DNA of 64,000 bases from a virus (IMGVR_UViG_3300043788_000049:23272-87271); one strand, 5' to 3'. Shown: positions 859 through 60,900, numbered from the stretch's first letter. Notes: generated by a model from the letters alone, not told the origin. Made by a program: numbers and translations.

Positions 859-1245
859 TTAGGGAAGGATCAGCGGCGGCCCCTTGACCGTGGCGTCATC
901 GGGTGGGACGAGCCCGGTCTTTTGCTGAAATTCAAGATATTCGCCGGAATTGCAGGGCGTGAAGACGACGCGCGCGCGGTCCCAATCTGGCCTACCGCCC
1001 GAGGCGTCGGCGGTTTCACGGATTTGCGTCTTGACGGCTCTGGTCAGTAAATCATCGATCCGGACGTCCTGAGTGTGCCTACGACACAGATGGCAATCGT
1101 GCATGCTGACGATGGGCTTGCGGATTTTCTCGTGCCAGCCAACGAAGGGGACCAGAGCGCAAGGGGCATACGCGCCGTTTTCATCGCATCCATGCGAGTC
1201 ACAGCGAAACCCGAAGAGAGTGGTCCCTTCAACTCGACGTGCCAT
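859..1245 (-). CDS. Hypothetical Cys/His (zinc-binding-like) protein
   Basis: CDSHGC...CHLCRRH; start MARRVEG abuts the upstream stop. Confidence 0.55.
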   Translation of the reverse strand: MARRVEGTTLFGFRCDSHGCDENGAYAPCALVPFVGWHEKIRKPIVSMHDCHLCRRHTQDVRIDDLLTRAVKTQIRETADASGGRPDWDRARVVFTPCNSGEYLEFQQKTGLVPPDDATVKGPPLILP

Positions 1246-1871
1246 CAGCGGAGCGCCCACTGAACGATCGTGGCGATGAGGGCCACAAAAGCGGACGCGA
1301 CTATCGCTACTAAGCTCCAATCAAGCCGAAGCGGCTTGGAGGAGAATGAAACTTGTGATGGCTGCGTCCTTGTCAGGGACTGCCACACCAGATGCTCATT
1401 GAGCTTCTCGTTCTTGTCCTCGATCGCGCCGAGAACATCCATGGCATGGAATAAAGCTCCGGCGCTATCGACGTAATAAATGCCATGGGGCGGCCCATAG
1501 CCGTGGACGGTCAGCACATTTCCGCCCCAATGGATATTGTAGGCCATCAAAAGGCCATGAGCCGCCTGAGTCGGCGCATAATCCTTGAGCGTCTCGCAAT
1601 ATTCTCTGACCTTTGCGGCATGGTCGGGATTGGCAAAGACCGAATCAGCCGGACAATCGAGCTGGGGCGGAACTTCGGGGATGATGGTGGGGGCGGGGGC
1701 AGGCTGGCTATAGACGCCGGCCTGTTGATAGGTGCCGCCGCCATACGGCTGGGTTGCGAGAACTTGCCCCATCCCCGACAGCCCATTGCCGCCGCCGCCA
1801 TATTGGCTTAGGGCGTGCTGGTAGGCTTGGGTGGCGGCGTTCATCTGCGCGAGCATCGCTGGGTGCATCAT
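1245..1871 (-). CDS. Hypothetical protein, Gln/Gly/Tyr-rich N-terminus and C-terminal TM helix
   Basis: 208-aa ORF coupled to neighbours by stop/start overlap. Confidence 0.6.
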   Translation of the reverse strand: MMHPAMLAQMNAATQAYQHALSQYGGGGNGLSGMGQVLATQPYGGGTYQQAGVYSQPAPAPTIIPEVPPQLDCPADSVFANPDHAAKVREYCETLKDYAPTQAAHGLLMAYNIHWGGNVLTVHGYGPPHGIYYVDSAGALFHAMDVLGAIEDKNEKLNEHLVWQSLTRTQPSQVSFSSKPLRLDWSLVAIVASAFVALIATIVQWALR

Positions 1872-7854: not shown

Positions 7855-8583
7855 TCACCGCTCGTCAGGTTTACCTTTCGGATCAGAGGCTTGCTCGATT
7901 GGACTGCTACCTTCGCTAGGTAGAGCCTTCCCCTCGATCATCGGCGGGCCGGACTGCATCGCTGCGGCTTGTCGGATGAGGAACGCCACCTTCCGAGCCG
8001 CCTCGATCGAGGTCGAGACGCCAACGTTGAGCTGGTTGACTGTGACATTGGTTGGCGGTGGCTTGTCGTCAGCGAACGCGCCGGTGATTTTGAGAATGTC
8101 TACAAGGGCTTGGCGTTGGTCGTGCAGTTCGATGCGCGCGTGGCCGAACTTCGCGATGATGCCCTTGATGCTGGCTGCAGTTGCGGCGCTCATCTTCGAG
8201 CTGGGCGTCATCCGGACGTCTTCCTCGTAGCCCGTGACCTCGCCATCTGCATTGACGATCGCGCGCCTATCCCATTGAGCGATCTCGCGAATGTCCGTGA
8301 ATGCGATGGCTTCCAGGCGAGCCAATGCGCGTTGCTGCAGGTCGCCCGCTTTCGCTTGGCGGCGCACAAACCTGCGAGTTTGGGCTTTTACTCGGTCATC
8401 GAGGAGCTTTTGGACCTGAGCGGCGATGTCAGGTCGGTGTCTGCGGTGCCAAGCTTCTTGCTTGTTGTCGGAGAAGCCAGCGAGCCTATGGGCCTCGGCG
8501 AGTTTGTGGCCTTCAGCGATAGCGGCGGCGAAGGCGTGGTCACGCGGAGAGAGAGAGGCTCTTTTTTTTTGGTTTAAGGGCAT
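7855..8583 (-). CDS. terS: Terminase small subunit
   Basis: N-terminal HTH (FAAAIAEG..EAHRLAGFS), LEAIAFTDI, IELHDQRQALVDILKITGAF as in Terminase_2-type proteins. Confidence 0.85.
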   Translation of the reverse strand: MPLNQKKRASLSPRDHAFAAAIAEGHKLAEAHRLAGFSDNKQEAWHRRHRPDIAAQVQKLLDDRVKAQTRRFVRRQAKAGDLQQRALARLEAIAFTDIREIAQWDRRAIVNADGEVTGYEEDVRMTPSSKMSAATAASIKGIIAKFGHARIELHDQRQALVDILKITGAFADDKPPPTNVTVNQLNVGVSTSIEAARKVAFLIRQAAAMQSGPPMIEGKALPSEGSSPIEQASDPKGKPDER

Positions 8584-8719
8584 TTGGGGGAGGATATGTG
8601 TTTGTTGCCAGCAAGCCAAGGTGCGGCGGTTGCGGCGAAGTTGGGTTTGGGTTTAATGGCCCAACGCCTTATCAGAGGCGAGCGGTGGCAGGCAAAGGGG
8701 AAGTGGGAGGTAGGAGAGG

Positions 8720-8932: not shown

Positions 8933-9409
8933 GTGATGGCTGAGACGAGAGAAGCGGTTCTGGAGGCTTCCAATGGCGATGGTGGCTATGATGAGGAAGT
9001 CATTGTGGCCAAGGATGCGGCGAATGCGGCTGGGTTTGACCATGTAGGCGCATATTGCGGGACGAAGATGATGGCTGCGGCTATTGCGGCGCTGGATGCA
9101 CATCGAAAGGCTAAGCGTGAACCAAAGGCTTCTGAGGCCAGCGTAGCGATGAGGGTTGGAAGCGCGGTTAAGGCCGAATGGGAGCGGTTCATGATGGGTC
9201 CGGACGGCGATGATGCTGTCAAAGAGACCCGAGCGCTTGGTCGCGCGGCGTTGGCGGCGCTTCGCGACCCGAATCACGAGATGATCGAGGTTGGCCGAAT
9301 GGAGTTGGGCACCTGGCAGGATATCCCAGGGTCCGGATTGACGGTGGCGCGCGAGAAGATGCGGCGAAGATGGAATGCAATGGTCGAATGGGCGATAGCC
9401 AGAGGGTGA
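8933..9409 (+). CDS. Hypothetical protein
   Basis: GAGG RBS; AALAALRDPNHEMIEVG..WNAMVE like 4243..4476. Confidence 0.6.
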   Translation: MMAETREAVLEASNGDGGYDEEVIVAKDAANAAGFDHVGAYCGTKMMAAAIAALDAHRKAKREPKASEASVAMRVGSAVKAEWERFMMGPDGDDAVKETRALGRAALAALRDPNHEMIEVGRMELGTWQDIPGSGLTVAREKMRRRWNAMVEWAIARG

Positions 9410-9413
9410 TGAG

Positions 9414-9665
9414 TTACGCCCTCTTGGCGCGTAGCTCATCAAGGACGTCGAAGAGATTGGGGGGATCGGTGAATGATTGCAAAGTCCAGACCCCGAATCT
9501 ATTTAATCGCCACGTCCATCCAGCCTGATGACCATTGAGCGCGTTTAGCCAAAGCACGCCACCGCGCCGGCGAAGCTGGAAATCAATATTCTTTGGGCAG
9601 ATAGAGAGGGGTCCTAGCTCATCCTCCGACAGATCGCCAACGCCTGGAAGCTTCTCAATGCTCAT
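9414..9665 (-). CDS. Small protein with C-terminal PNLFD-ELR tag (member 1)
   Basis: Ends DPPNLFDVLDELRAKRA. Confidence 0.75.
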   Translation of the reverse strand: MSIEKLPGVGDLSEDELGPLSICPKNIDFQLRRRGGVLWLNALNGHQAGWTWRLNRFGVWTLQSFTDPPNLFDVLDELRAKRA

Positions 9666-9933
9666 GGGCCCGCAATTCCTCAATGATGTCAAATAGATTG
9701 GGGTTTGGGTCCAACCACACCGGACAAAGCGTGCCGTCGCACCCGTAACGCCACTCGTTCCCCAAAAATATGCGCTGCCATGTAGAGTCTGGATACTTAG
9801 AGCGATCTTCCGCCATCAGAGGGCCAAGGATGCTCGGATAAGCCAGCCAATCGCCATCTTCCGGCAGCGCATTGACCGCTTCCAGCTCGATCGCCGTCAG
9901 CCGCCGCGCGCCTTCTCGAATCATGACGCTCAT
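9655..9933 (-). CDS. Small protein with C-terminal PNLFD-ELR tag (member 2)
   Basis: Ends PNPNLFDIIEELRAHEH. Confidence 0.75.
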   Translation of the reverse strand: MSVMIREGARRLTAIELEAVNALPEDGDWLAYPSILGPLMAEDRSKYPDSTWQRIFLGNEWRYGCDGTLCPVWLDPNPNLFDIIEELRAHEH

Positions 9934-10208
9934 TTGCGCAACTCGTCCAAGATGTCGAAAAGGTTGGGGCCGACCATCGCCCGGAACTCCTCATCGGGGC
10001 TTATCTGTTGCCACTGATACGAGTGGCCGCTCGAACTCACGTTGAGGGCGCAGACGACACTATTCTGGGTATTGCGCAGCCAAATCTTGCCGTCAGCGGC
10101 ACGCTCTACTGTCCAGTTCACCTTCTTATCCAGCGCCCGCAGAGCCTCTAATTCAATCCGCGTTGTGATGAATCTTCCGTCATTTGGTTCAAGTGTGAGG
10201 ACCGTCAT
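9930..10208 (-). CDS. Small protein with C-terminal PNLFD-ELR tag (member 3)
   Basis: Ends VGPNLFDILDELRK; ATGA-coupled to the TylF gene. Confidence 0.75.
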   Translation of the reverse strand: MTVLTLEPNDGRFITTRIELEALRALDKKVNWTVERAADGKIWLRNTQNSVVCALNVSSSGHSYQWQQISPDEEFRAMVGPNLFDILDELRK

Positions 10209-10915
10209 TTGCGTAACCAGCGAACCGAGAAGTCCACATGCGCCAGATAGGGCCTGATCCTCAGCGTTGAGAAGAACTCGTTGCAAGCGTCCCGACATCC
10301 TTTGAGGCACCAGTCATCGATAATCACGAAGCCGCCGGGCACGACCAGATCCCATAGGTGGTCGAACGCGACCTTGTAGCTGTCGTAGAGGTCGCCATCG
10401 AGCCGCAGGATTGCGATCGGGCCAACGTAATCGACCGGAACTGTGTGCTGGAACCAGCCCTTGTGGATGTGCAGATCGTCCAGCGGATAGCCGATTTGCG
10501 CCATCAGCCCGATCACATCGCCCAATTTAGCATCGCCGAGCGCGCCAGCGGCTTCGAGCGCGCCATCGCAGCGCCCAGGCGGCAATTTCTGCGTTTCGCA
10601 CGCCCAGATTATGTCGTCCTTGTCGAACCGAGGCCACGGAATGCCCTCGAAACTGTCAAAAGCGTGCAAAGCCCGGCGGCGAGAGCCAAACTTGAGATTG
10701 GCGAGCGCCATCGCGCCCAGAGCTCCGCCCCGCCAACAGCCCAATTCAACAAATGCGCCCGGTATCGCTTCCTCCTCGCAATAGCGGACCTGATCAATTA
10801 ATGTCGCAATCCCGTCATACGTGACCATGGTGTGAAGCTTGATGGCCTCGATGATCGGCCACATGACCGTGTGCTCGTCGCGATAGCCGCGCGACATGAA
10901 CTGCGAGTGGATCAT
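10205..10915 (-). CDS. TylF/MycF/NovP-family sugar O-methyltransferase
   Basis: PGAFVELGCWRGG, FDSFEGIP, KGWFQHT, ILRLDGDLYDS, PGGFVIIDDW. Confidence 0.9.
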   Translation of the reverse strand: MIHSQFMSRGYRDEHTVMWPIIEAIKLHTMVTYDGIATLIDQVRYCEEEAIPGAFVELGCWRGGALGAMALANLKFGSRRRALHAFDSFEGIPWPRFDKDDIIWACETQKLPPGRCDGALEAAGALGDAKLGDVIGLMAQIGYPLDDLHIHKGWFQHTVPVDYVGPIAILRLDGDLYDSYKVAFDHLWDLVVPGGFVIIDDWCLKGCRDACNEFFSTLRIRPYLAHVDFSVRWLRK

Positions 10916-11032
10916 CGCGTCCCCGATCGAGATAGCCTGCGATGAGAAACATTGGTCCGATGGGCCAACCCCTGGGTAAATCATCATGCTTGATCCGGCG
11001 AGTTCCGTTGGTTAAGAGGCAGTTTATCACAG

Positions 11033-11236
11033 ATGGAGACGCGAGTGGAAACCCCGAGCGACAAATTGGACCGAGCGAAGCGCGATAAGCTGCTCGATAT
11101 TATCCGGCGAGTGATCGCCAACCCGGAGAACGCCAAGGAAGCCGCGGACGAGATCGCGCAAGACTGGTTTCCGATGATCAAGGTTGATGCCCGCGGCGCG
11201 ATACACTTTCGTGTGGGCTCGGGCCGCAAACGATAG
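11033..11236 (+). CDS. Hypothetical protein
   Basis: 67-aa ORF heading a short plus-strand cassette. Confidence 0.5.
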   Translation: METRVETPSDKLDRAKRDKLLDIIRRVIANPENAKEAADEIAQDWFPMIKVDARGAIHFRVGSGRKR

Positions 11237-11245
11237 GAGCGACCA

Positions 11246-11425
11246 ATGAAGCTGATCCTCGCGTTGTTCGTGGCCCTCGGCCTCTCGGGATGCGCCACGG
11301 GCAACTATCCGAGCCAAGACTATAGCTGGGAGCACCACGAGGACCATGGATGGGACCACCCAGACCATCATGGCGACTGGCGTCATCCGAATCACCGCCG
11401 GCTCAAACATCAGGCAAAGCCATGA
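11246..11425 (+). CDS. Small His-rich lipoprotein (not in ORF track)
   Basis: MKLILALFVALGLSGC lipobox, then EHHEDHGWDHPDHHGDWRH; AGGAG RBS. Confidence 0.7.
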   Translation: MKLILALFVALGLSGCATGNYPSQDYSWEHHEDHGWDHPDHHGDWRHPNHRRLKHQAKP

Positions 11426-11631
11426 GCATCATTTCCAGCGTCGATCTGGCCCGCAAGCTCGTCATCATGGCGTCCGGCGAGGAAGTCCCGATCACCAATA
11501 TGTTCGATCGGCACGGCGAGGAAGTGACCGACCCGCGCCGCGCCGCGACCGTCGTTGCCGGGCCATGTGAGGCGGGATGGATTGCCACTGTCCTTAGCGA
11601 GGAGGAGCGGGAGGAGTTGGAGCCAGCGTAG
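11422..11631 (+). CDS. Hypothetical phage protein
   Basis: VPITNMFDRHGEEVTDP..VAGP..GW; ATGA-coupled. Confidence 0.6.
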   Translation: MSIISSVDLARKLVIMASGEEVPITNMFDRHGEEVTDPRRAATVVAGPCEAGWIATVLSEEEREELEPA

Positions 11632-11902
11632 CGCGCAATTCCTCGATCACGTCAATGATGTTGGGGCCGGGCTCCTCCCACGCCTCAATGATCGGCCATT
11701 CCTCCAACTCGGGTTGGCGCAGATCGCGCGGCAGCCACCTGCCGTTGCTCATCAGAGCCCACACTCCTTGGATATTTCGTAGCATGAGCCCGTGGGCGTG
11801 CCGTGAGAGCACAAAATTAAGCGGAAGGTCTGAGCGCACTCGCTCGACCGCCCGTTCCTCAGCCTCACTCATCGGGAGGCAGTTAGGGTCATATCGGATC
11901 AT
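11594..11902 (-). CDS. Small protein with C-terminal PNLFD-ELR-like tag (member 4)
   Basis: EPGPNIIDVIEELRA near the C-terminus. Confidence 0.75.
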   Translation of the reverse strand: MIRYDPNCLPMSEAEERAVERVRSDLPLNFVLSRHAHGLMLRNIQGVWALMSNGRWLPRDLRQPELEEWPIIEAWEEPGPNIIDVIEELRATLAPTPPAPPR

Positions 11903-12147
11903 CGCCGCGCCCGCAGTTCGTCGAGGAGATCGAAGAGGTTGGGGGCGTCTACGGATAAGACGATCCAATGCCCGTCGAGCCCCGTTTCCTTTTCCCATGC
12001 CATTCTCGGGAAATGGCCATTTTCATCAACTGCGACGAAGGTGGCGAACTCGTAGCGAAACGTGCATATCCACTTGCCACCGCGAGGCAAAAGATCCGCG
12101 CCCGTGAAGATGCGCCCATCGGGCGTAAAGACCGGACTGCTAGCCAT
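11899..12147 (-). CDS. Small protein with C-terminal PNLFD-ELR tag (member 5)
   Basis: Ends DAPNLFDLLDELRARR. Confidence 0.75.
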   Translation of the reverse strand: MASSPVFTPDGRIFTGADLLPRGGKWICTFRYEFATFVAVDENGHFPRMAWEKETGLDGHWIVLSVDAPNLFDLLDELRARR

Positions 12148-12382
12148 CCCGCTTGGCCTCCAGCGCGCGTAGCTCCTCGATCACGTCCACAATGTCAGGG
12201 CCGGGAGGGGGCGGGTTCTTCCACGCATCATACTGCGCGGTCCAATCGATCCGGAGCGGATAGAGCCAATGAAGCACGAAGCCGAGAAGAAGCCCGAGCC
12301 CGAGGATCACGATTGAACCCATCATCACGATCGCCAGAAAGCCCAGGGCGATATTCACGACCATGTCGGGATCAATCATCAC
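12140..12382 (-). CDS. Small membrane protein with C-terminal tag (member 6)
   Basis: TM segment, then PPGPDIVDVIEELRALE. Confidence 0.75.
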   Translation of the reverse strand: MMIDPDMVVNIALGFLAIVMMGSIVILGLGLLLGFVLHWLYPLRIDWTAQYDAWKNPPPPGPDIVDVIEELRALEAKRDG

Positions 12383-13536
12383 GCACTCGGGTCCAGATCG
12401 AGCAACTTCCCGAACGGCGGCTTGTTCGAATAGCCTCCATATCGCACCCAGAGCACCGGACAGCCGGGTTCCTGGCCGAAGCTATGGCAGCACAGGTCGG
12501 TCAGATAAACGACGCCAGAGGCCTTGGGAGCGTGTTCTGCGGTCCATCGGAAGGCCGGAGCGAAATCTGTCCCCCCTCCAGGCTTCGGACACACGTTGAT
12601 GATGTCGCCGGCCTCGAACTCCAACGTCTCTTGGACCGCGCAATCGCAGAACCCGACAGTCAGCTTCTCGCACGCGCTCTCATCGAGGAAGCCCTGTAGC
12701 TCCGCCATGATCGCGGCCAGGGAGCGCTCGTCCATCGAGCCCGACGTGTCGACCCAAGCGACGATATGCGAGGGCGCGATCGAGCCCGACCCTGGAAGGA
12801 TTATCCCGTCGCCATAGTCGCGGCGCGACGGGCGCGTCCAATCGGTGTCAACGATGCGTGATTCGTCCGCCCAATCCCGGAATAGCTCCTTCCAGGTGAT
12901 CGTGGGCTTGTCCAAATCGGCCATCATCTTGACCAGGGGCGCGGGAATCGAGCCGACGTTCTTGGCGCGCGCCACCGCCATCGCTTGTCGCACCTGCACC
13001 TGGGCGCGGCGCTCGGCCTCCTTCATTTCCGAGGAGGCATAGGGCGGCGCAGCGTCCATCACCCCGCCGCACTTGCCGGGGTCGCTGCCATCGCCCCCCT
13101 TGACCTTCTTCGCGTTCTTGACCAGCAGGTTGTAGACCTGCTCGGTCGACATGCCCTCGTATTTCTGGTCGTAAAGGTGCGGGTTCGGCAGCTTGATGCC
13201 AGCGCGCCGCAGATCGGCGTTAATGACGAAATCGCCGGCAATGTTCCAGATGTCGCCCTGGCGATCGCCGCGGCGCGTGTGGTGGAGATAGCAAACGTGC
13301 ATCACTTCGTGCGCAAGGACAGCTTCAAGCTCCTCCATCTTCAGCTTCAGGACGAACGGCGCCCAATAGAACAGGCGCTTGCCATCCGTCGCCATCGTGT
13401 CGATGCCAGAGCCCTCGGGGCCCGGATGGACCCCCATGTGCATGATCAAGACGGCGAAGAATGGCTGGCTCATCATCAGCCGCGCCCGTGCCTTCAGGAT
13501 CTTCTTCTCAGCTTCGATCTGGTCTGGAGTCAGCAT
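12379..13536 (-). CDS. DUF2201-type metallopeptidase-like (HExxH) plus vWA-like domain protein
   Basis: TMATDG, LAHEVMH, WNIAGDFVIN; MIDAS DTSGSM, GGGTDF, YLTDL. Confidence 0.9.
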   Translation of the reverse strand: MLTPDQIEAEKKILKARARLMMSQPFFAVLIMHMGVHPGPEGSGIDTMATDGKRLFYWAPFVLKLKMEELEAVLAHEVMHVCYLHHTRRGDRQGDIWNIAGDFVINADLRRAGIKLPNPHLYDQKYEGMSTEQVYNLLVKNAKKVKGGDGSDPGKCGGVMDAAPPYASSEMKEAERRAQVQVRQAMAVARAKNVGSIPAPLVKMMADLDKPTITWKELFRDWADESRIVDTDWTRPSRRDYGDGIILPGSGSIAPSHIVAWVDTSGSMDERSLAAIMAELQGFLDESACEKLTVGFCDCAVQETLEFEAGDIINVCPKPGGGTDFAPAFRWTAEHAPKASGVVYLTDLCCHSFGQEPGCPVLWVRYGGYSNKPPFGKLLDLDPSA

Positions 13537-13967
13537 CAGAAATCTCCATCGGCGATCTGAGCGCAAGGGATTCCAAGCTTGCGCCATACATCCACGACGC
13601 GCTTCCTGTCCTCGAAAATCATGATCGGCTCGAACCCCGCCTCGCGCGCCTCAGCCAGCAACTCGACCTTGACCACGCTATCGTCTCGATAGTCGCCAGC
13701 CTTGCGCATGAAAAGGCCATGGATAAGCACTCCGTGCTTGGTCAGCCATTCCACTGTGAGTTGCCGGCACTCATCAGAGCGCCCCGAGAGGCACACGACT
13801 GGCGCAGGGAGCATCTGCGCCAGATCGATCATGTGAGGGATAGGCGCGTCGCCGTCGCACGCAGCGAAGAAGGCCCGCCAATCCTTTGGCTTCTTCTGGA
13901 TGTGATGCAGCCGATGTGACGGGTCCGAAAGCGTCCCATCGATGTCGAAAAACCATGCCCGCTTCAT
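13536..13967 (-). CDS. HAD-superfamily phosphatase (T4 PNKP phosphatase-like)
   Basis: FDIDGTL, SGR, LFMR..D.R.D..VK, FEDR. Confidence 0.9.
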   Translation of the reverse strand: MKRAWFFDIDGTLSDPSHRLHHIQKKPKDWRAFFAACDGDAPIPHMIDLAQMLPAPVVCLSGRSDECRQLTVEWLTKHGVLIHGLFMRKAGDYRDDSVVKVELLAEAREAGFEPIMIFEDRKRVVDVWRKLGIPCAQIADGDF

Positions 13968-13978
13968 TTTCTGCCCCC

Positions 13979-14974
13979 CTAGATCGAGATGTCCTGGTTC
14001 CGCGTCGCCCACTCGGTGTAGGCCTTGGTGGTCTTGAGCGAGGGATCGCGCTTGACCGCATCCGTGACCAGCGTCATCTCGAAGTCCTTGGTCAACCGGC
14101 CGCCATAGATGAGGATCGCTTCGAAATTTCCCCGATCCGCCTTGCGGGCCAGAGCGCCAACCACCGCAAATTGGGTGTTTGGAGCCGATGGAACCGCAGC
14201 CTTCCTCGGATGCGCGATGATCTCGGCCAAGGGCGGTAAGGTTTTATACGTCTGAATGAACGCCTCCAGTTCCGACGCCGCGCCCTCGCCAACTAATCCC
14301 TCGATCAGCTTTTGCCGAATATCGTCATCGGCATGGATGACCTTGGCGACCTGGACCCAGGACCGCGGCGACGGGAACGCCCGAACCTCGATGTTCTGCG
14401 GGACATTGTGGAGCAAGGCCGGCCGATAGCGCAGGAAGGCGCAGATGAGCGGTTCGATCAGCGCCTTGTTGGCCCAGGACTGCCAAGCGTCCATGTCCTC
14501 CTCGACGTCGATCCAGGCAAAGCGATTCGCCAAGCCAACCGGCATCTTGTTGACGCCGGAGCGGTCGATCTGCCGATTGCCCGCGGCGACGATCATTGTC
14601 CGGGGAGGCAATTTATGCAGGCCGACAGCCCGATTCCACACCAGTTGGAAAAATGCCGTTTGCACAGAAACGCTTCCCTGAACTAATTCGTCGATGAACA
14701 GCATCGTCGGCCTGTCGCCGTAGCTCTCCAGCTCCGTCAGCCACTTCGGCTTGGCCCAATCGACGCCCGCATCCGCCCGGAAGGGCAGGCCACGAACGTC
14801 AACTGATTCGAGCGTCGTCGCGCGCTCCTCGACCAGCACAGCGCCCAGCTCATCGGCGACCTGATAGACGCCCTCCGACTTGCCGATGCCGTTCTTGCCG
14901 GAAATCATCACCGACATCCCAGCCGCGAGATAGGCTTTCAGGCACTTCTTAGCCATCGTGACGTTCATAGGCAC
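13979..14974 (-). CDS. MoxR-like AAA+ ATPase
   Basis: Walker A GKNGIGKS, DVRGLP, Walker B LFIDE, AAGNR, LANRF, FPSPRSW. Confidence 0.9.
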   Translation of the reverse strand: MPMNVTMAKKCLKAYLAAGMSVMISGKNGIGKSEGVYQVADELGAVLVEERATTLESVDVRGLPFRADAGVDWAKPKWLTELESYGDRPTMLFIDELVQGSVSVQTAFFQLVWNRAVGLHKLPPRTMIVAAGNRQIDRSGVNKMPVGLANRFAWIDVEEDMDAWQSWANKALIEPLICAFLRYRPALLHNVPQNIEVRAFPSPRSWVQVAKVIHADDDIRQKLIEGLVGEGAASELEAFIQTYKTLPPLAEIIAHPRKAAVPSAPNTQFAVVGALARKADRGNFEAILIYGGRLTKDFEMTLVTDAVKRDPSLKTTKAYTEWATRNQDISI

Positions 14975-15037
14975 AACCCCTTTCGTCGAAGCCTAATCGC
15001 TTCGGACAGCCGGCGCGAGGCCGGCTCCCCGCTGCGG

Positions 15038-15265
15038 TCACAGCAGATGCGCCAGCCGATCGTTCAGCTTGCCCGGAGGCAGCGGGCGATCGCTCTCGAT
15101 CGAAGACGTGCCGTGGGCATAGAAGAAGCAGCGCGGGTCGATCCTCTCCGCCTCATCGGCCGCAACCCTAACCGCAGCCCTGGCGCGTTCATGGTCGGCG
15201 AACGGCCCAAGCAGCCAAGCCGTGCGCTGGCCGTCCTTCAAGGTGACGTAATAGCCTTTTGCCAT
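15038..15265 (-). CDS. Hypothetical protein
   Basis: YYVT..DG.R..WLLGPF..H..A; AAGGGG RBS. Confidence 0.65.
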   Translation of the reverse strand: MAKGYYVTLKDGQRTAWLLGPFADHERARAAVRVAADEAERIDPRCFFYAHGTSSIESDRPLPPGKLNDRLAHLL

Positions 15266-15289
15266 TTGGATTTCCCCTTTCCTCACTTT

Positions 15290-15390
15290 CCCATAAATGA
15301 GGCCGTAGAGCCGGTCAAGCGAAATCTGGCTGTTTCCCCCAATAATATGGGCGTGGGCAGTTGACATGCGCCAGAATATCATATCTAAGG
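15290..15390. promoter_or_regulatory. Divergent sigma70-like promoters
   Basis: TTGACC on minus (15313-15318) and TTGACA on plus (15361-15366) in the AT-richer gap between oppositely oriented operons. Confidence 0.5.
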
Positions 15391-15429
15391 AGCGTGGGGC
15401 GATCGTGTCCCAATCGAAAGGGGTTAAAA

Positions 15430-15624
15430 ATGTTAACCATTCACCGCACCGCCCAAGAATGCCAGAACCTCGCCGCTACCTTCGCCAAGGACGCCCTCGA
15501 AGCCCAGGAGCGCGGCGACGAAGGGATCGCCTGGGCCTTCATGGCCAAGTCAGCCTATTACGAGAATGAGGCCCTGGAGCAAATGAAGATCGAAGACCAG
15601 ATGGCCGAAGCCCTCGCGGCGTGA
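15430..15624 (+). CDS. Small acidic helical hypothetical protein
   Basis: AAGGGG RBS; first gene of the plus-strand operon. Confidence 0.65.
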   Translation: MLTIHRTAQECQNLAATFAKDALEAQERGDEGIAWAFMAKSAYYENEALEQMKIEDQMAEALAA

Positions 15625-15736
15625 AGGAGGACACCATGAGAATCACACCGATCGAATTAGCTCTGATCCTCGCCCTGGTGGCGCTGGCTGTCACCGTCTC
15701 TATCGCAACAACCGCAGGGGTGTGAGAATATTTGGC

Positions 15737-16015
15737 ATGAACCCCCACGCCCAGGCAGTCGAGGCGATCATGGAGGCGGTGGCGGAATATGCGCCGCCGC
15801 TGGATAAGCCTGTGGGGTTTCTCCATGAATTTCTCGACCGCGCGGCGTTATTGGACTTGGACGGAGCCGAAAACTATTTGCGGTGGTTGCTGAACTTGCC
15901 GACGGACACGCCCGGCATTCTCGTGCAACACGGATTCCGGTGGGAACGGGAGCCTAATAAGCGGCGCAGAGAGATCCTCGTGAACTGGCTCCGGCGCGTA
16001 AGGTTCATGAAATGA
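15737..16015 (+). CDS. Small protein with N-terminal HAxxVxAIL tag (member A)
   Basis: MNPHAQAVEAIMEAVAEY. Confidence 0.75.
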   Translation: MNPHAQAVEAIMEAVAEYAPPLDKPVGFLHEFLDRAALLDLDGAENYLRWLLNLPTDTPGILVQHGFRWEREPNKRRREILVNWLRRVRFMK

Positions 16016-16557
16016 CCAAGCGCCACGTCCACCACATCGACGGCAACCCCAACAACCACGACCTCGCCAATCTGAGGTTGGTAAAGGCGAGCGTTGGCGT
16101 GTCGCCGAACTTGAACCCGGTGCCGCTTGGGAAGCTCTACGGCCGCTCCCCCGGCTCGCTCCCTGCCGACTTCGAAGAAGCGATGGACCGGATTAATTCA
16201 TTCAACCGTCGCTTCAAAACCCGCCTCGTGAAGGTGACGCCCCCGCCGGCTAACAAGGAACATGCGGCGGAGGTCCAGAGCATTCTGGAGACGGTGTGCT
16301 CGGTGGACTTCGCGCCATCGCCCCAAGGATTGCCAGGGATGCCCACTGAGGCTGATTTCGCCTATGCAGCCAGTATGGACAGCGCGGGCCGCGCCCTTGG
16401 GCATGTAGGCCGTCTTGCTGCCAATCTCTGCGGGTATTCAGAGCAAGTATTCGATTGGACTGTTGGCGAGGGACGCGCTTGGCTAGGGGCTACTCGCTCC
16501 TTCCGCCGCGATTGGCTCCGAGGCAAGGTCGAGCGCGCCTTGAGGGCCCGCCGATGA
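16012..16557 (+). CDS. HNH-motif remnant fused to an internally tagged domain (member B)
   Basis: HVHHIDGNPNNHDLANLRLV at the N-terminus; internal EHAAEVQSILETV. Confidence 0.7.
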   Translation: MTKRHVHHIDGNPNNHDLANLRLVKASVGVSPNLNPVPLGKLYGRSPGSLPADFEEAMDRINSFNRRFKTRLVKVTPPPANKEHAAEVQSILETVCSVDFAPSPQGLPGMPTEADFAYAASMDSAGRALGHVGRLAANLCGYSEQVFDWTVGEGRAWLGATRSFRRDWLRGKVERALRARR

Positions 16558-16853
16558 CCCACGCCGCCGAGGTCGAGCGCATCCTGGCCCATGCCGAGGA
16601 GTATCTGGCTCCGCCGCAGCGGGTTTTTGATGCAGACTGGCTGACGGAGTGGTGCAAGGGCATGAGCGGTTTTTCGGCAGGGATCGCCGCCATATCCTGC
16701 GTGAGTTATTTCAAGCTAGATGAGCCAGAGGCGATGGTCGCCGACTTGCTTAACCGCCTTGGCTGGAGGGTGGCCGGAGCTACCGCGCGCGTCACAATCA
16801 TTCGCAATGCCTTGAGCATCTTTGGCGTCCGGACGAAGCAGGCTCGCCCATGA
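16554..16853 (+). CDS. Small protein with N-terminal tag (member C)
   Basis: MTHAAEVERILAHAEEY. Confidence 0.75.
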   Translation: MTHAAEVERILAHAEEYLAPPQRVFDADWLTEWCKGMSGFSAGIAAISCVSYFKLDEPEAMVADLLNRLGWRVAGATARVTIIRNALSIFGVRTKQARP

Positions 16854-17149
16854 CCAACGACGCCCATAGCGCCCAGGTGGAGGCGATACTGGAGCAAATC
16901 GGGGCGTTTGCCTTCACCCCAGGAACCAACCTGCGGGTCTGCGTAGGCCAAATCGTTCCAGGTGATGTGATCGTTTGGGACACATGCCAAAGGATCGTGA
17001 GAAAAGTCCGGCATACCGGCGGCCAATATATCGAAGTCTCAATGAGAGGCGTTGACGGTAAGGTGTTCGACGTCGATTGGGACGTCACTCATCACGTCGA
17101 AATCCTCACCCCGCCATTGCCGGAATGTATCGCAAGAGGCTTGCTATGA
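16850..17149 (+). CDS. Small protein with N-terminal tag and SH3-like body (member D)
   Basis: MTNDAHSAQVEAILEQIGAF; IVPGDVI..RIV..V. Confidence 0.75.
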   Translation: MTNDAHSAQVEAILEQIGAFAFTPGTNLRVCVGQIVPGDVIVWDTCQRIVRKVRHTGGQYIEVSMRGVDGKVFDVDWDVTHHVEILTPPLPECIARGLL

Positions 17150-17373
17150 ACCCCGCCGATCACAAAGCCGCCGTCGAGGCGATCGAGGCAAAGGTCGCGG
17201 AGTATGAGGGGCCAGTGCCTGCCCACGATCGCTGGACTGTCGATTTGGGTAGCACAACCATCACGCCACTCTTGAGCGGCAACTTTAACGTGCTGAGTGG
17301 GTATTACCTTGTCGCAACGCCGGAAGAGGCAGCAAAAAACCAACGAGCCTTTTGGGAGAACCTAGACCTATGA
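17146..17373 (+). CDS. Small protein with N-terminal tag (member E)
   Basis: MNPADHKAAVEAIEAKVAEY. Confidence 0.75.
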   Translation: MNPADHKAAVEAIEAKVAEYEGPVPAHDRWTVDLGSTTITPLLSGNFNVLSGYYLVATPEEAAKNQRAFWENLDL

Positions 17374-17618
17374 CCGACGCCGTGACCATCAAGTCCTTCT
17401 CCGAACTCGCCAAGGAATGGCGGACCCGCAACCGCTACTCCCGCCCCCAGCTCTCCGAGCTGACGGGATACTCCCCCTCGGCCATCCAGGACATCGAGGA
17501 GGCGATCTACCGCTCCCCGCCCCATCCGGTCAGCCCGGAGGTCATGCGGCGCTACCGGCTGATCTGCGCCGCGGTGGAGCACAAACTGACGGATTGGGAA
17601 TTTACCGATCGGGGATGA
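17370..17618 (+). CDS. XRE/Cro-type HTH regulator
   Basis: KEWRTRNRYSRPQLSELTGYSPSAIQDIE. Confidence 0.8.
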   Translation: MTDAVTIKSFSELAKEWRTRNRYSRPQLSELTGYSPSAIQDIEEAIYRSPPHPVSPEVMRRYRLICAAVEHKLTDWEFTDRG

Positions 17619-17619
17619 A

Positions 17620-17892
17620 ATGACCCACGCCTCACAGGTCCAGGCCATCCTCGATCGCGTCGCGGAGTGGGAGACGCCGCATGCCGCGGTGATCGAAGCA
17701 GCCTTGGAGCAAGCCGCGCACATGGCTCCGGGCGAAGCCTTACGCTGGCTCAACGCTCGCTTCGGGACGCCAATCCCGCAGTTTTGGGTCCAGCACGAGG
17801 TAGGAACGTGGGGATCGATAATAAAGATTGAGGAGCGCATCGTTTGGCTGCGGCGAAATTGCCTCAGCCCGACGCTAGGCTCCGGGTCTTAA
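17620..17892 (+). CDS. Small protein with N-terminal tag (member F; paralog of A)
   Basis: [17 protein letters not shown]; LRWL..P...VQH...WLRR shared with member A. Confidence 0.72.
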
Positions 17893-20468: not shown

Positions 20469-20771
20469 TCACCAGCAGAGGCCGAATAGGCCGCAAGGCG
20501 CGCTCTTGGGCTCCGGCTTTGCGACTACCGGGGTTGTCTCGGGAGGATAGTGGTCGTGGTGATGGCGATGATGATGGTGGTGATCCCGATCGCGGTCATG
20601 GTGGTGGTGGTGACGTCCATCTCGGTCGTGGTCGTGATGCCCCCGGTGCCCGTGGTGATGCCCTTCATGATGACCCCAATGGCCCTCGCCCTTACCCTTG
20701 CCGTGGTGGGCAAGAGCCGGCGAGGCAACTGCCAAGGTGAGAATAGCAGCGCAAGCAAGTAGTCTTTTCAT
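20469..20771 (-). CDS. Secreted His-rich protein
   Basis: Signal peptide ending ALA, then a dense H/G/D/R tract. Confidence 0.65.
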   Translation of the reverse strand: MKRLLACAAILTLAVASPALAHHGKGKGEGHWGHHEGHHHGHRGHHDHDRDGRHHHHHDRDRDHHHHHRHHHDHYPPETTPVVAKPEPKSAPCGLFGLCW

Positions 20772-54590: not shown

Positions 54591-54997
54591 AGCCTGAAGA
54601 TCGTCTTACCTGATTCCCAGCCGATATGAACGTCACCCGCCTGTGGCGAAAAGGGAAATTTGCCGCTACCGAGGGTGTCAATATGGGCGATCAGCCGGCT
54701 CGTGGCTCGGGAGCCGGTATCCTGGTAGACGACGATGAAATCGACGGAGGCCGCATCGACCGCCTCGATGACGACGCTATTGGCGCAGGCGACGCCGTTC
54801 TCCCCCGTCTTGCCCGTCAACACGACGCTCTTGGACACCACCGCCGCGCCGAGGTCGGCCAGAAAGCGATCCTTCTGGATATTGGCCTTGCGCTGCTTGC
54901 CATCGCAGAGGACCGCGCAGATTTTGTCCTCCAGCCACTTAATCTGGCCGCAGAGGAAGGCTTCACGCCCTTTCTCAAAGAGACTGTTCGCCATCAT
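54587..54997 (-). CDS. Minor tail protein-like
   Basis: ANSLFEKGREAFL.G.I.W..D; LTGKT..GV..A; LIA.ID; P.GDV.I.W. Confidence 0.65.
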   Translation of the reverse strand: MMANSLFEKGREAFLCGQIKWLEDKICAVLCDGKQRKANIQKDRFLADLGAAVVSKSVVLTGKTGENGVACANSVVIEAVDAASVDFIVVYQDTGSRATSRLIAHIDTLGSGKFPFSPQAGDVHIGWESGKTIFRL

Positions 54998-57900
54998 TCG
55001 ATCCTTGCGCCAGTGATCATGCCGGTTTCGTCGCGTGAGAAAGAGACCTTCGTCTTGTTCTCGGCTCCGACCGTCGCCCCGGTGATGAAGCCATTCTCAT
55101 CGCGAGAGAAGGAGACGCTCTTGGCCCCGCCCTCCATGCACTTGACTGCGGCCTTATAGGCTTTCTCAAGCTGGTCCGCCATTTCTTGGGTCATGACGTG
55201 AGGCGGTTCGGGGACGCCAGCCTCTTTCGCGGTGCGCGCGGCGGCGGCGATTTCCTCATCGGTCGCCAGCAAGCGGTCGTAGACGCCGCGCATTTCTTCG
55301 GAGATCGGACGCCCAAGGCGCAAGAGGCCACGGTAAATCTTGCGCAGCCAGTCCTTGAACATCTCGAAGACGCGGGCGAGGCCTTCCGATGGAGCTTTCC
55401 CTGAGGCCAGATAGTCCTCGAAGCCATCAGAGAACTTTTCGCGGTGTTCTGGCGTGAGGCTCTCGCGGTCTTTGGCTCCCACAAAGGCTAGCGCCGTGGC
55501 GGCGTCTGCCTTGATCTGGGGTGAAGCGTCCGGCGCGGAGGCATCCTCCAGCAGCTCGTCGAACCAAAGATGCGAACCCTCGTGCATGACTGTCGAGGCG
55601 TCCGCCGTCTCGAACAGCTTGATGATCCGCTGGTTGCCCTGGAAGGTGATGGCCCCGCGCTGCGCGCCGCCGGGTAGCGCCGGCCCTTGAGCCAATTCCT
55701 TCTCAGTCTCCGGCTCGATCGTCGCCGCGGGGTTCGGCGCCTTCATCGAATCGGATAGCGCTTTGATCTTCTGAAGCGTCTGCTGGTATTCGGCCTCCTT
55801 CGGCCATTTGCCGGCGGCCAGCTTTTCGAGCTTCTCGAGGTCCTTGCGCCGATCGGCCAGCGCCGTCTCGGTCGCCTTGGCCCTGCTGGCGATATTGCCC
55901 AGGAGGTTCTCAAAACGCCGGATCAGGCCGCCGGGGTCCGTCTCCTTATTAAGTATGGTCTGGGTCGGCGAGCCATAGGGGTCCGTGCCCTTGAGCATCG
56001 GCGTGCCCTTTAGATAGAGCCCGTCGCTGTCGTATTGGGTCTGGACCTGCATCTGCATTTCAAAGCCGGACAACTCGCCCAGGTTGATGATTTTGGGCGT
56101 GTAATAGCGGCTGGCGTCCAGAGCCAGCACGGTCTTGAGGATGGCTTCGCCAGCCGCCTTGCGCTCGGTGATCACCTTGCCGCCGACCGTGATCTTGAAC
56201 TTGTCGCCGGCAAGGTCCTGCACGCGATCGCCGTCGGCCTTCTCGGTCGGCAGGCGCTCCTCGTAGGTGGCGATGGCCGCGCGACTGGCGTTGATCTGCC
56301 AGGAGGCGCGATCGACGTTCTGCTTATGCGCGCGCCGCTGGGCGGAGAGTTGCCGAGCCTGCCGATCGAGTTCCGCCAATTCCATGATGCGAGTATCGCC
56401 GGAGGCCGCCGCCTTCATTTCCGCCGCCTCGGGGAGCGGGTTGTCGATGTCCTCGGCGTGGCGCGAGCCCTTGGCGCCCGACAAGACTTGGCTGATGAAC
56501 TTCGACTTCGTGTCGAGCTTTTGCCACATGAAGGCGTCGAACGAGCGCTTGGTCACGTAGCGGAAGATTTGCACCTGCTTGTTGAGGTTGCCTTGGCGGA
56601 CAATGCGCCCGTCGCGCTGTTCGACCTCCGCCGGCTTCCATGGCGCATCCAGATGGTGCATCGCGATCAGGCGATCCTGAACGTTAGTGCCGACGCCCAT
56701 CTTTCCCGACGAGCCGATAAGGACACGAATATCGCCAGCGCGGACCTTCTTGAATAAGCGCCCCTTGGCAGCATCGTCCTTGGCGTCGTGGATCGCCGCG
56801 ATCTGCTCCGCAGGAATGCCCTTATCGACCAAGCGCTGTTTGATGTCGGCATAGAGGTCAATCTTGGGTTGTTCGATCTGCGCCGGGTCGCCCATCTCAT
56901 CCTCGATAGGCTTCTTTGCCGCCACTTTGGTCTGCGGCACGCCCATGTCGAGGAAGACCATCTGGACAGTGCCCGGCTCTTTGCCCTTCTTCCAAATCTC
57001 GTGAATATTTTTAACAGCGAGCGCGATCTTGCCTTTGGGGTTGAAATCGAAATTAGGATCGATAAGGCGACCGTCCGTCGCAACCTTGCGTCCGGCCGTC
57101 ACGACCGAGAGCATGTTCGGTTGGCCCTTCTCAGGCCGCTTGCCTTTCAGACTCTCCGCCAATTCCACGAGCTTCTGAATGTGCAGTTCTTCCTCTTCCG
57201 AAGGGGTCGCTTGGACAATCTCAATCCCTGGTCCGCCCGCTTTGGTCCGAACCTCGGGCCGCGGCAGTTTGAGCATGTCCGCCGTCTTGGTGTCGGCGAT
57301 CTCGGAATAGAGGCTGATGAGTTCTGGAACGTTGACGAATTTCGAGAAGGACGAGACTTCCTTGAAGGTCCGGCCGTCCGCTGAAAGCTCCATGTTGTTG
57401 ACGACCTTGCCGAAGGTCGAGGCCCAGGCATCGAAGTTCTCCAGCCCCGCTTCCTTCAGACGGTCGAGTTCGAGATAGCGCATCATCGTCCAGAGTTCGG
57501 CCATCGTGTTGGAGACGGGAGTGCCGGTCGCGAACACCGCTGATCGGCCGGGGCGCTTTTGTTCGAGGTAGCGGATTTTGAGGAACAGGTCCTCAGCCCG
57601 CTGGCTGTCGCCCTGGGCGAGACCCTTAACATTCCCTAACCTACTGGAAAAATACAGATTTTTGAAAAAATGCGATTCGTCGATTACCAAATGATCGATC
57701 CCGGTCTCTTCAAATGAAACGCCAGTGTCCTTGCGTTCCTCGTTCAGGAGCTTTTGCAGCTTGTCCTCCAGTTTCTTCTTGGCCTTTTCGAGCGCCTTGA
57801 CCGTCGGCGAGCGCTTGTCATCGGTGTCGGCAATCTCCGCCTTGCGCGCCCGCTCCAATTCGTCGAGTTGCTCCTGGATGAAATTCTGCCGATGCTCCAA

Positions 57901-60900
57901 GCTTGTGTTGATACGCCCGAAGGCGGAATGGGTCATAATGACGCCATCCCAATCGTTCGCTGCGACCTTGGCGATAAACGCCTTCCGGTGCTCTCTAGTC
58001 ATTTCCTCCTTCTGAGCAACCAGAATTTTGGCGTTTGGATAGGCTTCGATGAACTCTCGGGCGAATTGCTCCAGCATATGGTCGGGGATAGCAAAAGCGC
58101 CTTTATTGATGAGCCCTAAGCGCTTCTGTTCCATCACAGCGGCAATGCTCGTGACGGTTTTTCCACTTCCAACACTGTGCGCCAGAAGCGTATTTCCACT
58201 CTGGACAATGCGCCAAACTGCATCCTTCCGATGCTTACGATCGGCGAATTTGGGATTGAGGCCGGGGAAGGTCTGGTGGGCGCCGTCGAATTGCCGCGGG
58301 ACGAGGTTGTTGTAGGTCCGATTGTAGATGGCCTCCAGGCGCTGCGCGCGCTCCGGATCGGCGAAGGCCCAGGCGTCGATGCCGCGCTCCGGGTCGCCGG
58401 TGAAGGCTTCCTTGAGCGCCTCGACGCGCACGCGCGCCGCCTCGGTTGCGCCTTGGTCGACCTCATAGACATCAGGATTGCTGCTGACGTGGTTCCGGAC
58501 GGTGATCTGGCGGTTGTTGATCGCAGCGTCGATCACATCGTCCACGCTCACCCGGTCGGTCCCGTAGGTGGTGTGGGCAGAGGATGAATACTGGCCGTGC
58601 TTGACCTTCCAGCCGCCGGTGACGGGAATGGTCGAAATCCGGGTGTTGTAGCCGCCGATCTCCTTGATGAACGCCTCGTAGACGTCCGCCGGGATCCATG
58701 GGGCCCCGAACTGCGCCATGATGTCCGTGCCGGTCAACGGGGTCGGCTGAACCTTCTCCAAGGCCGCGACATTGCGTGAGTAGGCCGGGTCGCCATCGGC
58801 AATGACGCGGGCCTCTTCGAGCTTCTTGACCACATCGCCGGAGAGATAGCGGTCCGCCGGCTCCCATTGCCGCCCGTTCGGGTTCTGGAAGATCAGATCG
58901 CCTAGCGCTTTCGCGGCGGCTTCCTCGCTCCCGACATTGAGCATCTGGCCGATCTGTTGCAGATCGACGCGGCCGGTGGCGTCGAGCGTCGCCGCGAGCG
59001 CATCGGCGGGGCCATTGATCTGGCGCTCCTTCGGCGGGGCGATGATGTCCTTCTTCTGAATGTCGGCGGGCTTGGCCGTGCCCGTCTCGGCGTCATATTG
59101 CTCGATCGCCGCGACCTTCCAGGAATCGGGGTCATCCTTGAATGGCGCGAAGTTTGGCGTCTTGGTGATCGTGACCGGCTCGCCCGCGCGCGTGAGGCGC
59201 TTGGTGGTCTTTGTTTCTTCCTTGTTGATCGGGCCATGCGCCTTGACGAACTGGTCATAGGCTTCGCGGAGTTGCTTGCGGAGAGCATCGGCCTTGTCGC
59301 CACCCGAGAGTTGCTCCTTGAGCAAGTCGTTGACGATATCGCGAATGCCGGAGAGCTTCTTGACCCTGCTTTCGTCATCCCCGGATAGCCTCTGCTCGAC
59401 GCCGCGGCCCTGCTCGCGCCGATAGACCTTGCCGCCCTTCGAGAAGTAGGCCCCTTCCTTGGAGGCTCCCGGCTCAATATCGCGCTGGTCGATGACGGGC
59501 GGCCGCGGCGAGCCTCTGGGGACGAAGGCTCCTTCCCGCATGGTCGCGCCAGCGCCGTGGATTGCCATTCCAAGGTCCTGCGGGTCGCCTATTAGCACCG
59601 GCTCATTCTTGGCATACATCGAGCCCATCAACCGCATCTCGCCCAGCATCATCTTCGGATGGTCGGCAAAATACTCGTTGATCTTGACCGGCCCCTCGGG
59701 AGTCGAAATCTCCTTGAGATTGGTCCAGTTCTCGCCCGGATAGTCCGGCTCGCCGGGGACCTTCTTGCGCAGAAAGATAATGTCGGTCGTGACCTCGGTG
59801 CCGGCATTCCCCGCGAATGCGCCCTTGTCTCCGCCGGGCAGGCGAATAGCGCCAACGAAATCCGCCGTCTTGGAAAGCTCGCGGCGTGTTCCCGCGTCCA
59901 CGCGATCCATCGTGTAGCGCGACGTGATGAACGAAACGACGCCGCCGGGGCGAACCTTATCGAGCGACTTGACGAAGAAGAAATCATGGATCGGATAGGA
60001 GCCGTAGGGCTTTTCGGTCAGATTGAAATTGCCGAACGGCACGTTCGAGATTGCGAGGTCGAAGTAATTGCTGGGCCGCTTCAGCGTCTCGAAGCCCTGG
60101 ACGTTAATGTCAGCATCCCCGTAGAGCGCCTTGGCGATCCGGCCGGTCAGCGAGTCCAGCTCCGTCGCGGTCCAGGCGGTGCGGCTCGCGAGGCTGTCGG
60201 GGATCAGGCCGATGAAGTGCCCAACGCCCGCGGCCGGTTCGAGCGCGAGGCCGCCGTTGAACCCCAAATGCTGGAGAGCGCCCCAGATGCCGCGGATGAC
60301 GTCGGGAGACGTGTAATGGGCATTGAGGGTCGAGGCGCGCGCGGCGGCGTATTCCTCATCGGTGACGAGCGCTCGGAGGGCGTCGCGCTGCTGCTTGAAC
60401 TCGGGCCCACGGTCGGAGAACATCTTTTGGGCGAACGCGCCCCAGCCGGTGTATTTGACGAGGGTCGCCTTTTCCTCCGGCGTCGCCTCGCGCGCCTCGT
60501 CCTCGATCAGCTTGAGAACCCGGATGGCGTCGATGTTGGCGTTGATCTTCGTCTTGGGGCCACCGACGCCGACTTGGTCATCGGGAGTGATGCGATAGTT
60601 CGAGCGGGTGCGCTCCGCGATCTTCTCCTCGGCCTCGGCTAGTCCTGCGCCTCGGGGGTCGGTTGATGGATCTGGTCGTGCCTCACCTGCTCCTGGACCT
60701 CCGCTTGGCGGCTTTGTAACTCCCTCACTCGGTCCAGGTAGGGCAGCTTCTGCACCTCCGGCTTGTTGTGGTGCTCCGCCATCAGGTGCTCGTCCATCTC
60801 CGACGCCGAGTTCCCCACCCCCTCCAGATAGCTCTGGAGGTTTCCGGATGCGCTTAGGTCTTTGAGGACGTGCGGCATTGCCTCCTTCAGGTATTGGTGG

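Follow-up and report, generated by a model that had tools for sequence, protein, structure and literature searches.

In jumbo phages, a MoxR ATPase encoded together with a metallopeptidase-vWA protein has been described, and a role in assembly and processing was predicted for the pair (Iyer et al., 2021; PMC7824862). Bacterial vWA-MoxR ternary conflict systems have been linked to a zincin peptidase and to a small, fast-diverging protein whose C-terminal peptide is conserved (Kaur et al., 2020; PMC7159879). In NorQD, the helix-2 inserts of the ATPase shape the N-side mouth of the pore and hold the vWA finger (PMC13036017), and there is published precedent for vWA metal ion-dependent adhesion sites (MIDAS) that bind peptides via an acidic residue. 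Hundreds of cultured phages encode the MoxR and peptidase-vWA pair, for which neither a function nor a client is known. Here we describe a locus at positions 9414-17892 of a 64,000-nucleotide window (the whole stretch of DNA that was analysed), which comprises bases 23272-87271 of the 87,271-bp IMG/VR record IMGVR_UViG_3300043788_000049 from an uncultured phage, hereafter the window phage. In this locus, genes for a MoxR-like ATPase and a DUF2201 peptidase-vWA protein lie between two arrays of small genes whose products share a short helix, located at the C-terminus in one array (C-tag) and mostly at the N-terminus in the other (N-tag).

The C-tagged proteins are six in number, encoded on the minus strand, 80-102 amino acids (aa) long, and end in [GP]-P-[ND]-[LI]-x-D-x-[LI]-[DE]-E-L-R. 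Their acidic, amphipathic helix follows the pattern hydrophobic-[DE]-x-[IL]-[DE]-E-L-R-A. A six-frame search with [LIVF]D[VIL][LI][DE]ELR returned exactly six matches in the window and six in the 87,271-bp genome, all of them C-termini of minus-strand open reading frames (ORFs) between 9414 and 12382. The six C-tagged genes listed in an initial annotation of this DNA were thus all recovered, with none beyond the locus, and the genes it had named were all found where it had placed them. The N-tagged proteins, encoded on the plus strand, share H-x-x-x-V-[EQ]-x-I...Y/F..P within a likewise acidic and amphipathic helix of the pattern H-A-x-x-V-[EQ]-x-I-[LM]-x-x-x-x-x-Y-x-x-P. The search expression H..(.)[AEQ]V[EQ].I had exactly six matches, all on the plus strand at 15746-17649, and none elsewhere in the whole genome. 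The annotated number of six N-tagged genes therefore stands, but only five of the tags are N-terminal, the sixth being internal (residues 84-103 of a 181-aa ORF). Both helices carry a net negative charge of about -2 to -3. A weak internal N-tag-like stretch, F.NPDHAAKVR..CE, was also seen in a tail-anchored membrane protein (1245-1871, minus strand), and it is kept in the positional counterpart of that protein (97997-98428) in the sister phage introduced below.

Conservation of the tags acts at the level of the peptide and not of DNA or RNA, since third codon positions vary far more than the first two. For the C-tag, the entropy was 1.54 bits at position 3 versus 0.81 and 0.35 bits at positions 1 and 2, and for the N-tag it was 1.42 bits versus 0.93 and 0.96 bits. 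A DNA- or RNA-level repeat or a recombination linker was ruled out on the same grounds. Overall, the tagged proteins measure 75-181 aa and their bodies are nearly unrelated: once the tags are cut off, only weak pairwise matches are left, and a profile made from either genome has no hit in the other. The bodies attached to the N-tag are of at least two different types. Neither Pfam, PHROGs nor PADLOC yielded a match to the tagged proteins; a structural search of BFVD with Foldseek gave nothing with E < 0.1, and the best hit of VIA-align among 48,161 chains reached a Z-score of only 3.8. Even if no link to the neighbouring ATPase holds, the locus documents strong peptide-level conservation of terminal helices over otherwise unrecognisable paralogues, something that recurs in phage accessory regions without explanation. 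The terminal helices resemble handles for recognition or assembly that are attached to changing bodies. In this general form, the earlier proposal that the tags are recognition or assembly signals survives, given the peptide-level conservation, the near-unrelated bodies and a C-tag that is specific to each genome.

This last property became apparent from the comparison with G001, a 98,782-bp phage that is collinear with the window phage genome-wide, with shared proteins 28-88% identical and most core genes 40-88% identical. G001 encodes the ATPase, the DUF2201 protein and six C-tagged proteins, and has a divergent array of 11 N-tagged genes together with the same helix-turn-helix (HTH) gene. 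The initial annotation had stressed that there are six tagged genes of each kind, a symmetry that is not conserved in G001. As in the window phage, both tags are confined to this locus, and DUF2201 and the first C-tagged gene overlap at the DUF2201 stop codon. While the N-tag of G001 is the same as that of the window phage, its C-tag is a distinct, internally uniform version (.[WE]DAI[DE]ELRA[ST]E), with a mean C-tag identity of 0.69 and 0.62 within the two genomes versus 0.51 between them. Such a genome-specific C-tag is in keeping with co-evolution with a single receptor that each genome, or each host, encodes. The G001 version also ruled out a beta-clamp-like reading of the C-tag ('NLFD.L'), as '.[WE]DAIEELRA' does not contain this motif.

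Tagged relatives are rare. A word-indexed search of 5.8 billion proteins found them only in the window phage, in G001 and on two contigs of less than 1 kb, and an exhaustive profile search for the N family among 1.84 billion representatives returned the same phages and the repeat protein P0027, which we judged to be a chance match. The exact DNA pattern of the C-tag had no match in IMG/VR, and no match was obtained in a nucleotide search of the isolate phage collection.

The G001 ATPase (L002 6277-7350, minus strand) carries a 28-aa insertion found in no other of the 21 homologues. Against the N-tag profile this insertion reaches 21.4 bits, compared with 15.8 bits for the best of 20,000 shuffles. 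In the AlphaFold2 model of this ATPase (pLDDT, the predicted local distance difference test, 88.8), the insertion is predicted to be helical and to lie at the tip of the helix-2-insert hairpin (E61-65/E96-100), which is placed between Walker A and Walker B. The G001 insertion is the only direct physical hint that joins the N-tag to the ATPase machine.

Walker A, Walker B, sensor 1 and Arg columns of the ATPase (GxxGxGK, hhhhDE, AAGN) are invariant or nearly so in the 21 homologues. Both hairpins expected of a MoxR-type AAA+ protein (clade 7, the helix-2-insert clade) are seen in the G001 model, which besides the helix-2 hairpin contains a short EE--EE pre-sensor-1 hairpin at 143-148, before the sensor-1 strand, and its top Foldseek matches are NorQ (9qh4, 9qhd) and CbbQ2 (6l1q), with E ~1e-9 and target TM-scores of 0.63-0.66. 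A sequence search of the PDB gave no match, and Pfam scores were below threshold: AAA_5 reached 12.1 bits in the window phage and 21.6 bits in G001 (cut-off 22), and bpMoxR 14.3 bits (cut-off 27). Fold and motifs agree with the annotation as a MoxR-like ATPase, while the Pfam AAA_5/AAA scores fall short of their cut-offs. In the DUF2201 protein, PF13203 scored 129 bits (cut-off 23.2) and PF09967 79.7 bits (cut-off 26.4). Its HExxH motif is present and its MIDAS motif (DxSxS..T..D) intact, with HEVMH, DTSGS, GGGTD and LTD shared with G001. The vWA domain with its MIDAS (DTSGS...T...D) is encoded downstream of the ATPase on the same strand. The HAD phosphatase, with 104 bits for PF25109 (cut-off 27.6) and FDIDGT fitting the DxDGT motif, is a phage-specific insertion between ATPase and DUF2201 genes, absent in G001 and in all 40 other viral loci. 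It likely starts at the ATG at 13967, which gives a protein of 143 aa.

The pair of ATPase and DUF2201 genes is widespread. It was found in 303 isolate phage records (N4-like, jumbo, Thermus and Roseobacter phages), usually among replication genes, and in every locus with upstream DNA the ATPase gene is located upstream of the DUF2201 gene on the same strand. The survey of such loci for flanking tagged genes, which had been suggested with the initial annotation, gave a divided answer: the tags are absent in more than 100 loci, but two others possess arrays with a different C-terminal helix. The latter were detected by a motif-blind survey of the AAA/DUF2201 loci for same-strand small proteins sharing a terminal helix, and both loci are divergent. 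On a metagenome phage contig of 34% GC (L076 1754-7714, plus strand), at least 12 small proteins end in ..[FY].E[FW]...KLE.LL at the stop codon, and their genes are interleaved with AAA, DUF2201, helicase-like and DNA-polymerase-like genes. At the other locus (L009 17175-20140, plus strand, and 1736-2032), a near-C-terminal [GS]PH..T[IL]LKA.E helix is common to seven small proteins, in an array 6-9 kb downstream of DUF2201. Homology of this array to the C family of the window phage and G001 was not supported (hhalign probability 0.15%). Tandem small paralogues of Cys-rich or zinc-ribbon-like character were observed at two further AAA/DUF2201 loci (L110 1418-3277, plus strand; L038 7592-10392, minus strand).

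We tentatively favour docking at the neighbouring MoxR/vWA-peptidase, with the helices as the handles. By such handles, small proteins of a changing set, be they adaptors, clients or substrates, could all attach to a single receptor, most likely a hexameric ring of the MoxR AAA+ type and its vWA co-factor, the latter fused to the zincin peptidase. We posit that the MIDAS site of the vWA domain or a nearby groove would capture a conserved acidic residue of the handle, that the ring would then remodel the bound protein through its helix-2-insert face, and that the HExxH domain may clip it. Hints that ATPase and vWA protein read the tags, as the initial annotation had supposed, come from the coupling of the first C-tagged gene to DUF2201, from the insertion in the G001 ATPase and from the arrays of L076 and L009, and they are offset by the many untagged loci and by inherited synteny. 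The link between the tags and the ATPase machine is therefore suggestive but not decisive.

A number of observations speak against docking at this machine. The tags are carried by only two complete genomes, whose common gene order is inherited and does not count as independent evidence because the genomes are collinear, and the ATPase of the window phage itself is without the 28-aa insertion. Window-type tags are absent in 38 other viral loci, 70 metagenome loci and one locus from a metagenome-assembled genome that encode the AAA/DUF2201 pair, and no arrays were present in the three loci sampled from the 303 isolate records. Many phages have a gene-insertion hotspot at the AAA-DUF2201 interval and its flanks. 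Finally, the uniform size of the C-tagged proteins, their Trp pattern and the beta-plus-helix model suggest that the helix may belong to a common fold and not be a free handle.

These last points also speak for the main rival explanation, by which the arrays are ordinary paralogues of a hyperplastic region, each array descended by tandem duplication from one small gene and fast to diverge, with the helix as the core of their fold and an insertion hotspot, not function, behind their position beside the pair. We consider this possible, if doubtful. The C-tagged proteins of both phages are all 80-115 aa long, encoded in tandem on one strand, and have Trp and Gly residues upstream of the helix that are invariant or nearly so; the AlphaFold2 model of C5 (pLDDT 72.7) is a single beta-plus-helix unit, with beta strands followed by a confident C-terminal helix at residues 80-91; and variable inserts occupy the AAA-DUF2201 interval in many phages. 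Given their common size, the Trp pattern and the model, the C-tagged proteins may well be very diverged paralogues. Yet the lack of any cross-genome profile signal from the tag-less bodies, which match each other only weakly in pairs, is not what this explanation leads one to expect, nor is the occurrence of different body types behind the N-tag. A fold core would also not travel as the N-tag does, which is found in an ATPase, in an ORF with an HNH remnant and, weakly, in a membrane protein, and the C-tag version is uniform within each genome although the bodies are very old.

The same helices might instead be handles for a different receptor, either a host hub or another phage protein, which would make the arrays early effectors of host takeover or anti-defence with a targeting peptide in common. 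The arrays consist of small orphan genes grouped about a divergent control region and include an HTH regulator, as would suit such effectors, acidic amphipathic helices are of the kind used for hub docking, the phage invests in counter-defence by way of a 2,993-aa DarB-like protein, and most AAA/DUF2201 phages do without the tags. We nevertheless think it unlikely, as it would reduce to coincidence both the insertion in the G001 ATPase and the coupling between C array and DUF2201, the tags fit no known hub-binding motif, and the tagged proteins lack PADLOC, Pfam and PHROG matches. Still less probable are virion-targeting or processing signals in the style of the T4 internal proteins, used for loading into the head or trimming and for delivery with the DNA. 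An array of variable bodies joined to one conserved terminal peptide would be in keeping with this, as would the position of the C array directly upstream of the small terminase and structural genes and the proposed involvement of phage MoxR/peptidase-vWA pairs in virion assembly and processing (PMC7824862). However, no other protein in either genome bears the tags, the DarB-like giant and the structural proteins included, an internal N-tag in the ATPase and in a longer ORF misfits a cleavable leader, and in isolates the pair is situated among replication genes and not among head genes. The second option of the initial annotation, that N- and C-helices pair into combinatorial heterodimers, we regard as highly improbable. 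The six-plus-six count in this genome and the amphipathic nature of both helices speak for it, but both helices are net acidic; the numbers in G001 are unequal (6 and 11), and the C-tag changed between the genomes while the N-tag did not, which speaks against co-evolving partners.

Docking at the MoxR/vWA-peptidase, to which we return, would have a wider implication that we put forward with more reserve. The MoxR/peptidase-vWA pair could be a programmable hub that reads short terminal helices, with the small proteins as interchangeable adaptors or substrates that are docked, remodelled or clipped and with the N-handle acting at the helix-2-insert mouth; on present evidence this is an uncertain and rather unlikely picture. 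If it were true, one lineage (G001) would have built the N-handle into the ring itself, and, taken with the lineage-specific tails near this gene pair in other phages, the locus would represent a widespread, undescribed addressing system and provide the first function for a pair whose conservation extends over N4-like and jumbo phages. In any case, the locus supplies concrete candidates, namely 12 short proteins and two defined peptide handles, and in G001 the same handle is found on that region of the ATPase ring by which, in solved MoxR complexes, the vWA finger is held. The question of what these machines act on in phage infection thereby becomes directly testable with peptides and a few recombinant proteins.

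The features of the locus are listed in Table 1. Leftward, the order is PHROG 20105 gene, ATPase, HAD, DUF2201, C1-C3, a plus-strand islet, TylF and C4-C6; rightward, after the divergent gap, a 64-aa ORF and a 29-aa hydrophobic ORF are followed by N1-N5, the HTH gene and N6. The 29-aa ORF (15637-15726, plus strand) follows the first plus-strand gene and precedes the N array; a strong Shine-Dalgarno sequence, AAGGAGG, lies ahead of it. ATGA or GTGA overlaps chain the genes within each run, including the stop of DUF2201 with the start of C1 and the stop of TylF with the start of C4. The leftward genes, annotated as driven from one divergent promoter region, do not form a single unbroken operon, with plus-strand islets at 8933-9409 and 11033-11631. 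The 93-aa protein of the latter islet has a homologue in G001, where the TylF gene has no counterpart. The HNH_3 core remnant HHIDGNPNN..NL (16012-16090, plus strand) forms the N-terminus of N2 and is probably what is left of a homing endonuclease, joined in frame to the ORF.

Table 1. Features of the tagged-array locus, ordered by position in the window
Feature	Position	Strand	Remarks
C6, 83 aa	9414-9665	-	C-tag; orthologue P0007 on 854-bp metagenome contig
C5, 92 aa	9655-9933	-	C-tag; AlphaFold2 model
C4, 92 aa	9930-10208	-	C-tag; ATGA-coupled to TylF
TylF-type O-methyltransferase	10205-10987	-	PF05711 E 3e-38; this phage only
Plus-strand islet splitting the C array	11033-11631	+	67-aa ORF, 59-aa lipoprotein-like ORF, 93-aa PHROG 12097 protein
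C3, 102 aa from ATGA-coupled start	11594-11902	-	C-tag
C2, 82 aa	11899-12147	-	C-tag
C1, 80 aa	12140-12382	-	N-terminal transmembrane helix; start overlaps DUF2201 stop codon
DUF2201_N zincin fused to DUF2201 vWA-like domain	12379-13587	-	PF13203 E 3e-37; PF09967 E 3e-22; PHROG 1314
HAD phosphatase, PNKP type	13536-14012	-	PF25109 E 9e-30; PHROG 415 and 505
AAA+ ATPase, MoxR-like, 331 aa	13979-14974	-	PHROG 1297, E 6e-79
75-aa protein, PHROG 20105	15038-15265	-	First gene left of divergent gap
Divergent intergenic gap, 164 bp	15266-15429		Promoter-like hexamers in both directions
N1, 92 aa	15737-16015	+	N-tag
N2, 181-aa ORF	16012-16557	+	HNH_3 remnant, internal N-tag (16261-16320), body; ATGA-coupled to preceding gene
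N3, 99 aa	16554-16853	+	N-tag; orthologue P0014 on 905-bp contig
N4, 99 aa	16850-17149	+	N-tag; G001 orthologue
N5, 75 aa	17146-17373	+	N-tag
Probable XRE-type HTH protein, inside N array	17352-17618	+	HTH_31 E 4.5e-5, sub-threshold
N6, 90 aa	17620-17892	+	N-tag

A divergent promoter near 15.3 kb, as had been annotated, is plausible from the hexamers in the gap (TTGACA at 15361-15366 on the plus strand, TTGACC-17-TATGGG at 15318-15290 on the minus strand), but the case is weak, with a promoter scan that gave one site versus 2.7 expected by chance and thus did not rise above chance. Two adjacent GC-rich hairpins were noted at 14975-15037, between the 75-aa PHROG 20105 gene and the ATPase start, and could be an attenuator or a processing site. 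The HTH gene is the best-conserved member of the N array, with 65% identity to its G001 counterpart. The annotated XRE regulator is accordingly present as a gene, but its assignment scores 24.1 bits for HTH_31, under the Pfam cut-off of 27.

The record has 127-bp direct terminal repeats, and the G+C content is about 60%. A match in a metagenome-assembled genome hints at an alphaproteobacterial host. It further encodes a small terminase (7855-8619, beyond a plus-strand ORF at 8933-9409 at the left end of the C array), RecT and an exonuclease, virion proteins and the DarB-like protein. The latter (2,993 aa; 54994-63975, minus strand) matches DarB-like antirestriction, methyltransferase and helicase PHROGs and is probably a counter-defence protein delivered by the virion. 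Small signal-peptide or lipoprotein-like proteins with extreme His-rich runs were found in both phages (20469-20771, minus strand, and 11246-11425, plus strand, in the window; L002 14560-14805, minus strand, in G001).

Compared with the described phage MoxR/peptidase-vWA pair (PMC7824862), the locus has the same two-gene core with the ATPase upstream, intact Walker motifs, HExxH and MIDAS. It differs in the two tagged arrays that flank the pair, in the HAD gene that splits it and, for G001, in a tag borne by the helix-2 insert of the ATPase; none of these three features was found in the literature searched. With NorQ-NorD and CbbQ-CbbO, the nearest solved folds, it shares the helix-2-insert and pre-sensor-1 hairpins and a MIDAS-bearing partner. 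Each of those systems is devoted to one client (cNOR or Rubisco) and lacks a peptidase domain, whereas many small clients are supposed here. The capsid-targeting sequence of the T4 internal proteins is similar in that small proteins, otherwise unrelated and encoded in a variable array, share one conserved terminal peptide, but the N-tag is internal in two proteins (N2 and the G001 ATPase) and is on no virion protein.

Peptide-processing systems of the FxSxx-COOH type, which accompany vWA-MoxR ternary conflict systems (Kaur et al., 2020; PMC7159879), likewise combine MoxR, vWA and zincin components with small diverging proteins that have a conserved C-terminal peptide. Among the locus proteins scanned, there was no radical-SAM enzyme, AP-ATPase or third core component. 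In outward form the locus resembles such a system, with HExxH fused to the vWA domain and six small proteins that share only a C-terminal motif. The locus departs from the published type in belonging to a phage, in the fusion of the peptidase to the vWA domain and in having multi-copy arrays rather than one precursor. Its C-terminal motif is helical (..D.[LI][DE]ELR) and not FxSxx, RxD or a poly-acidic run, and it is accompanied by a family of N-terminal tags as well.

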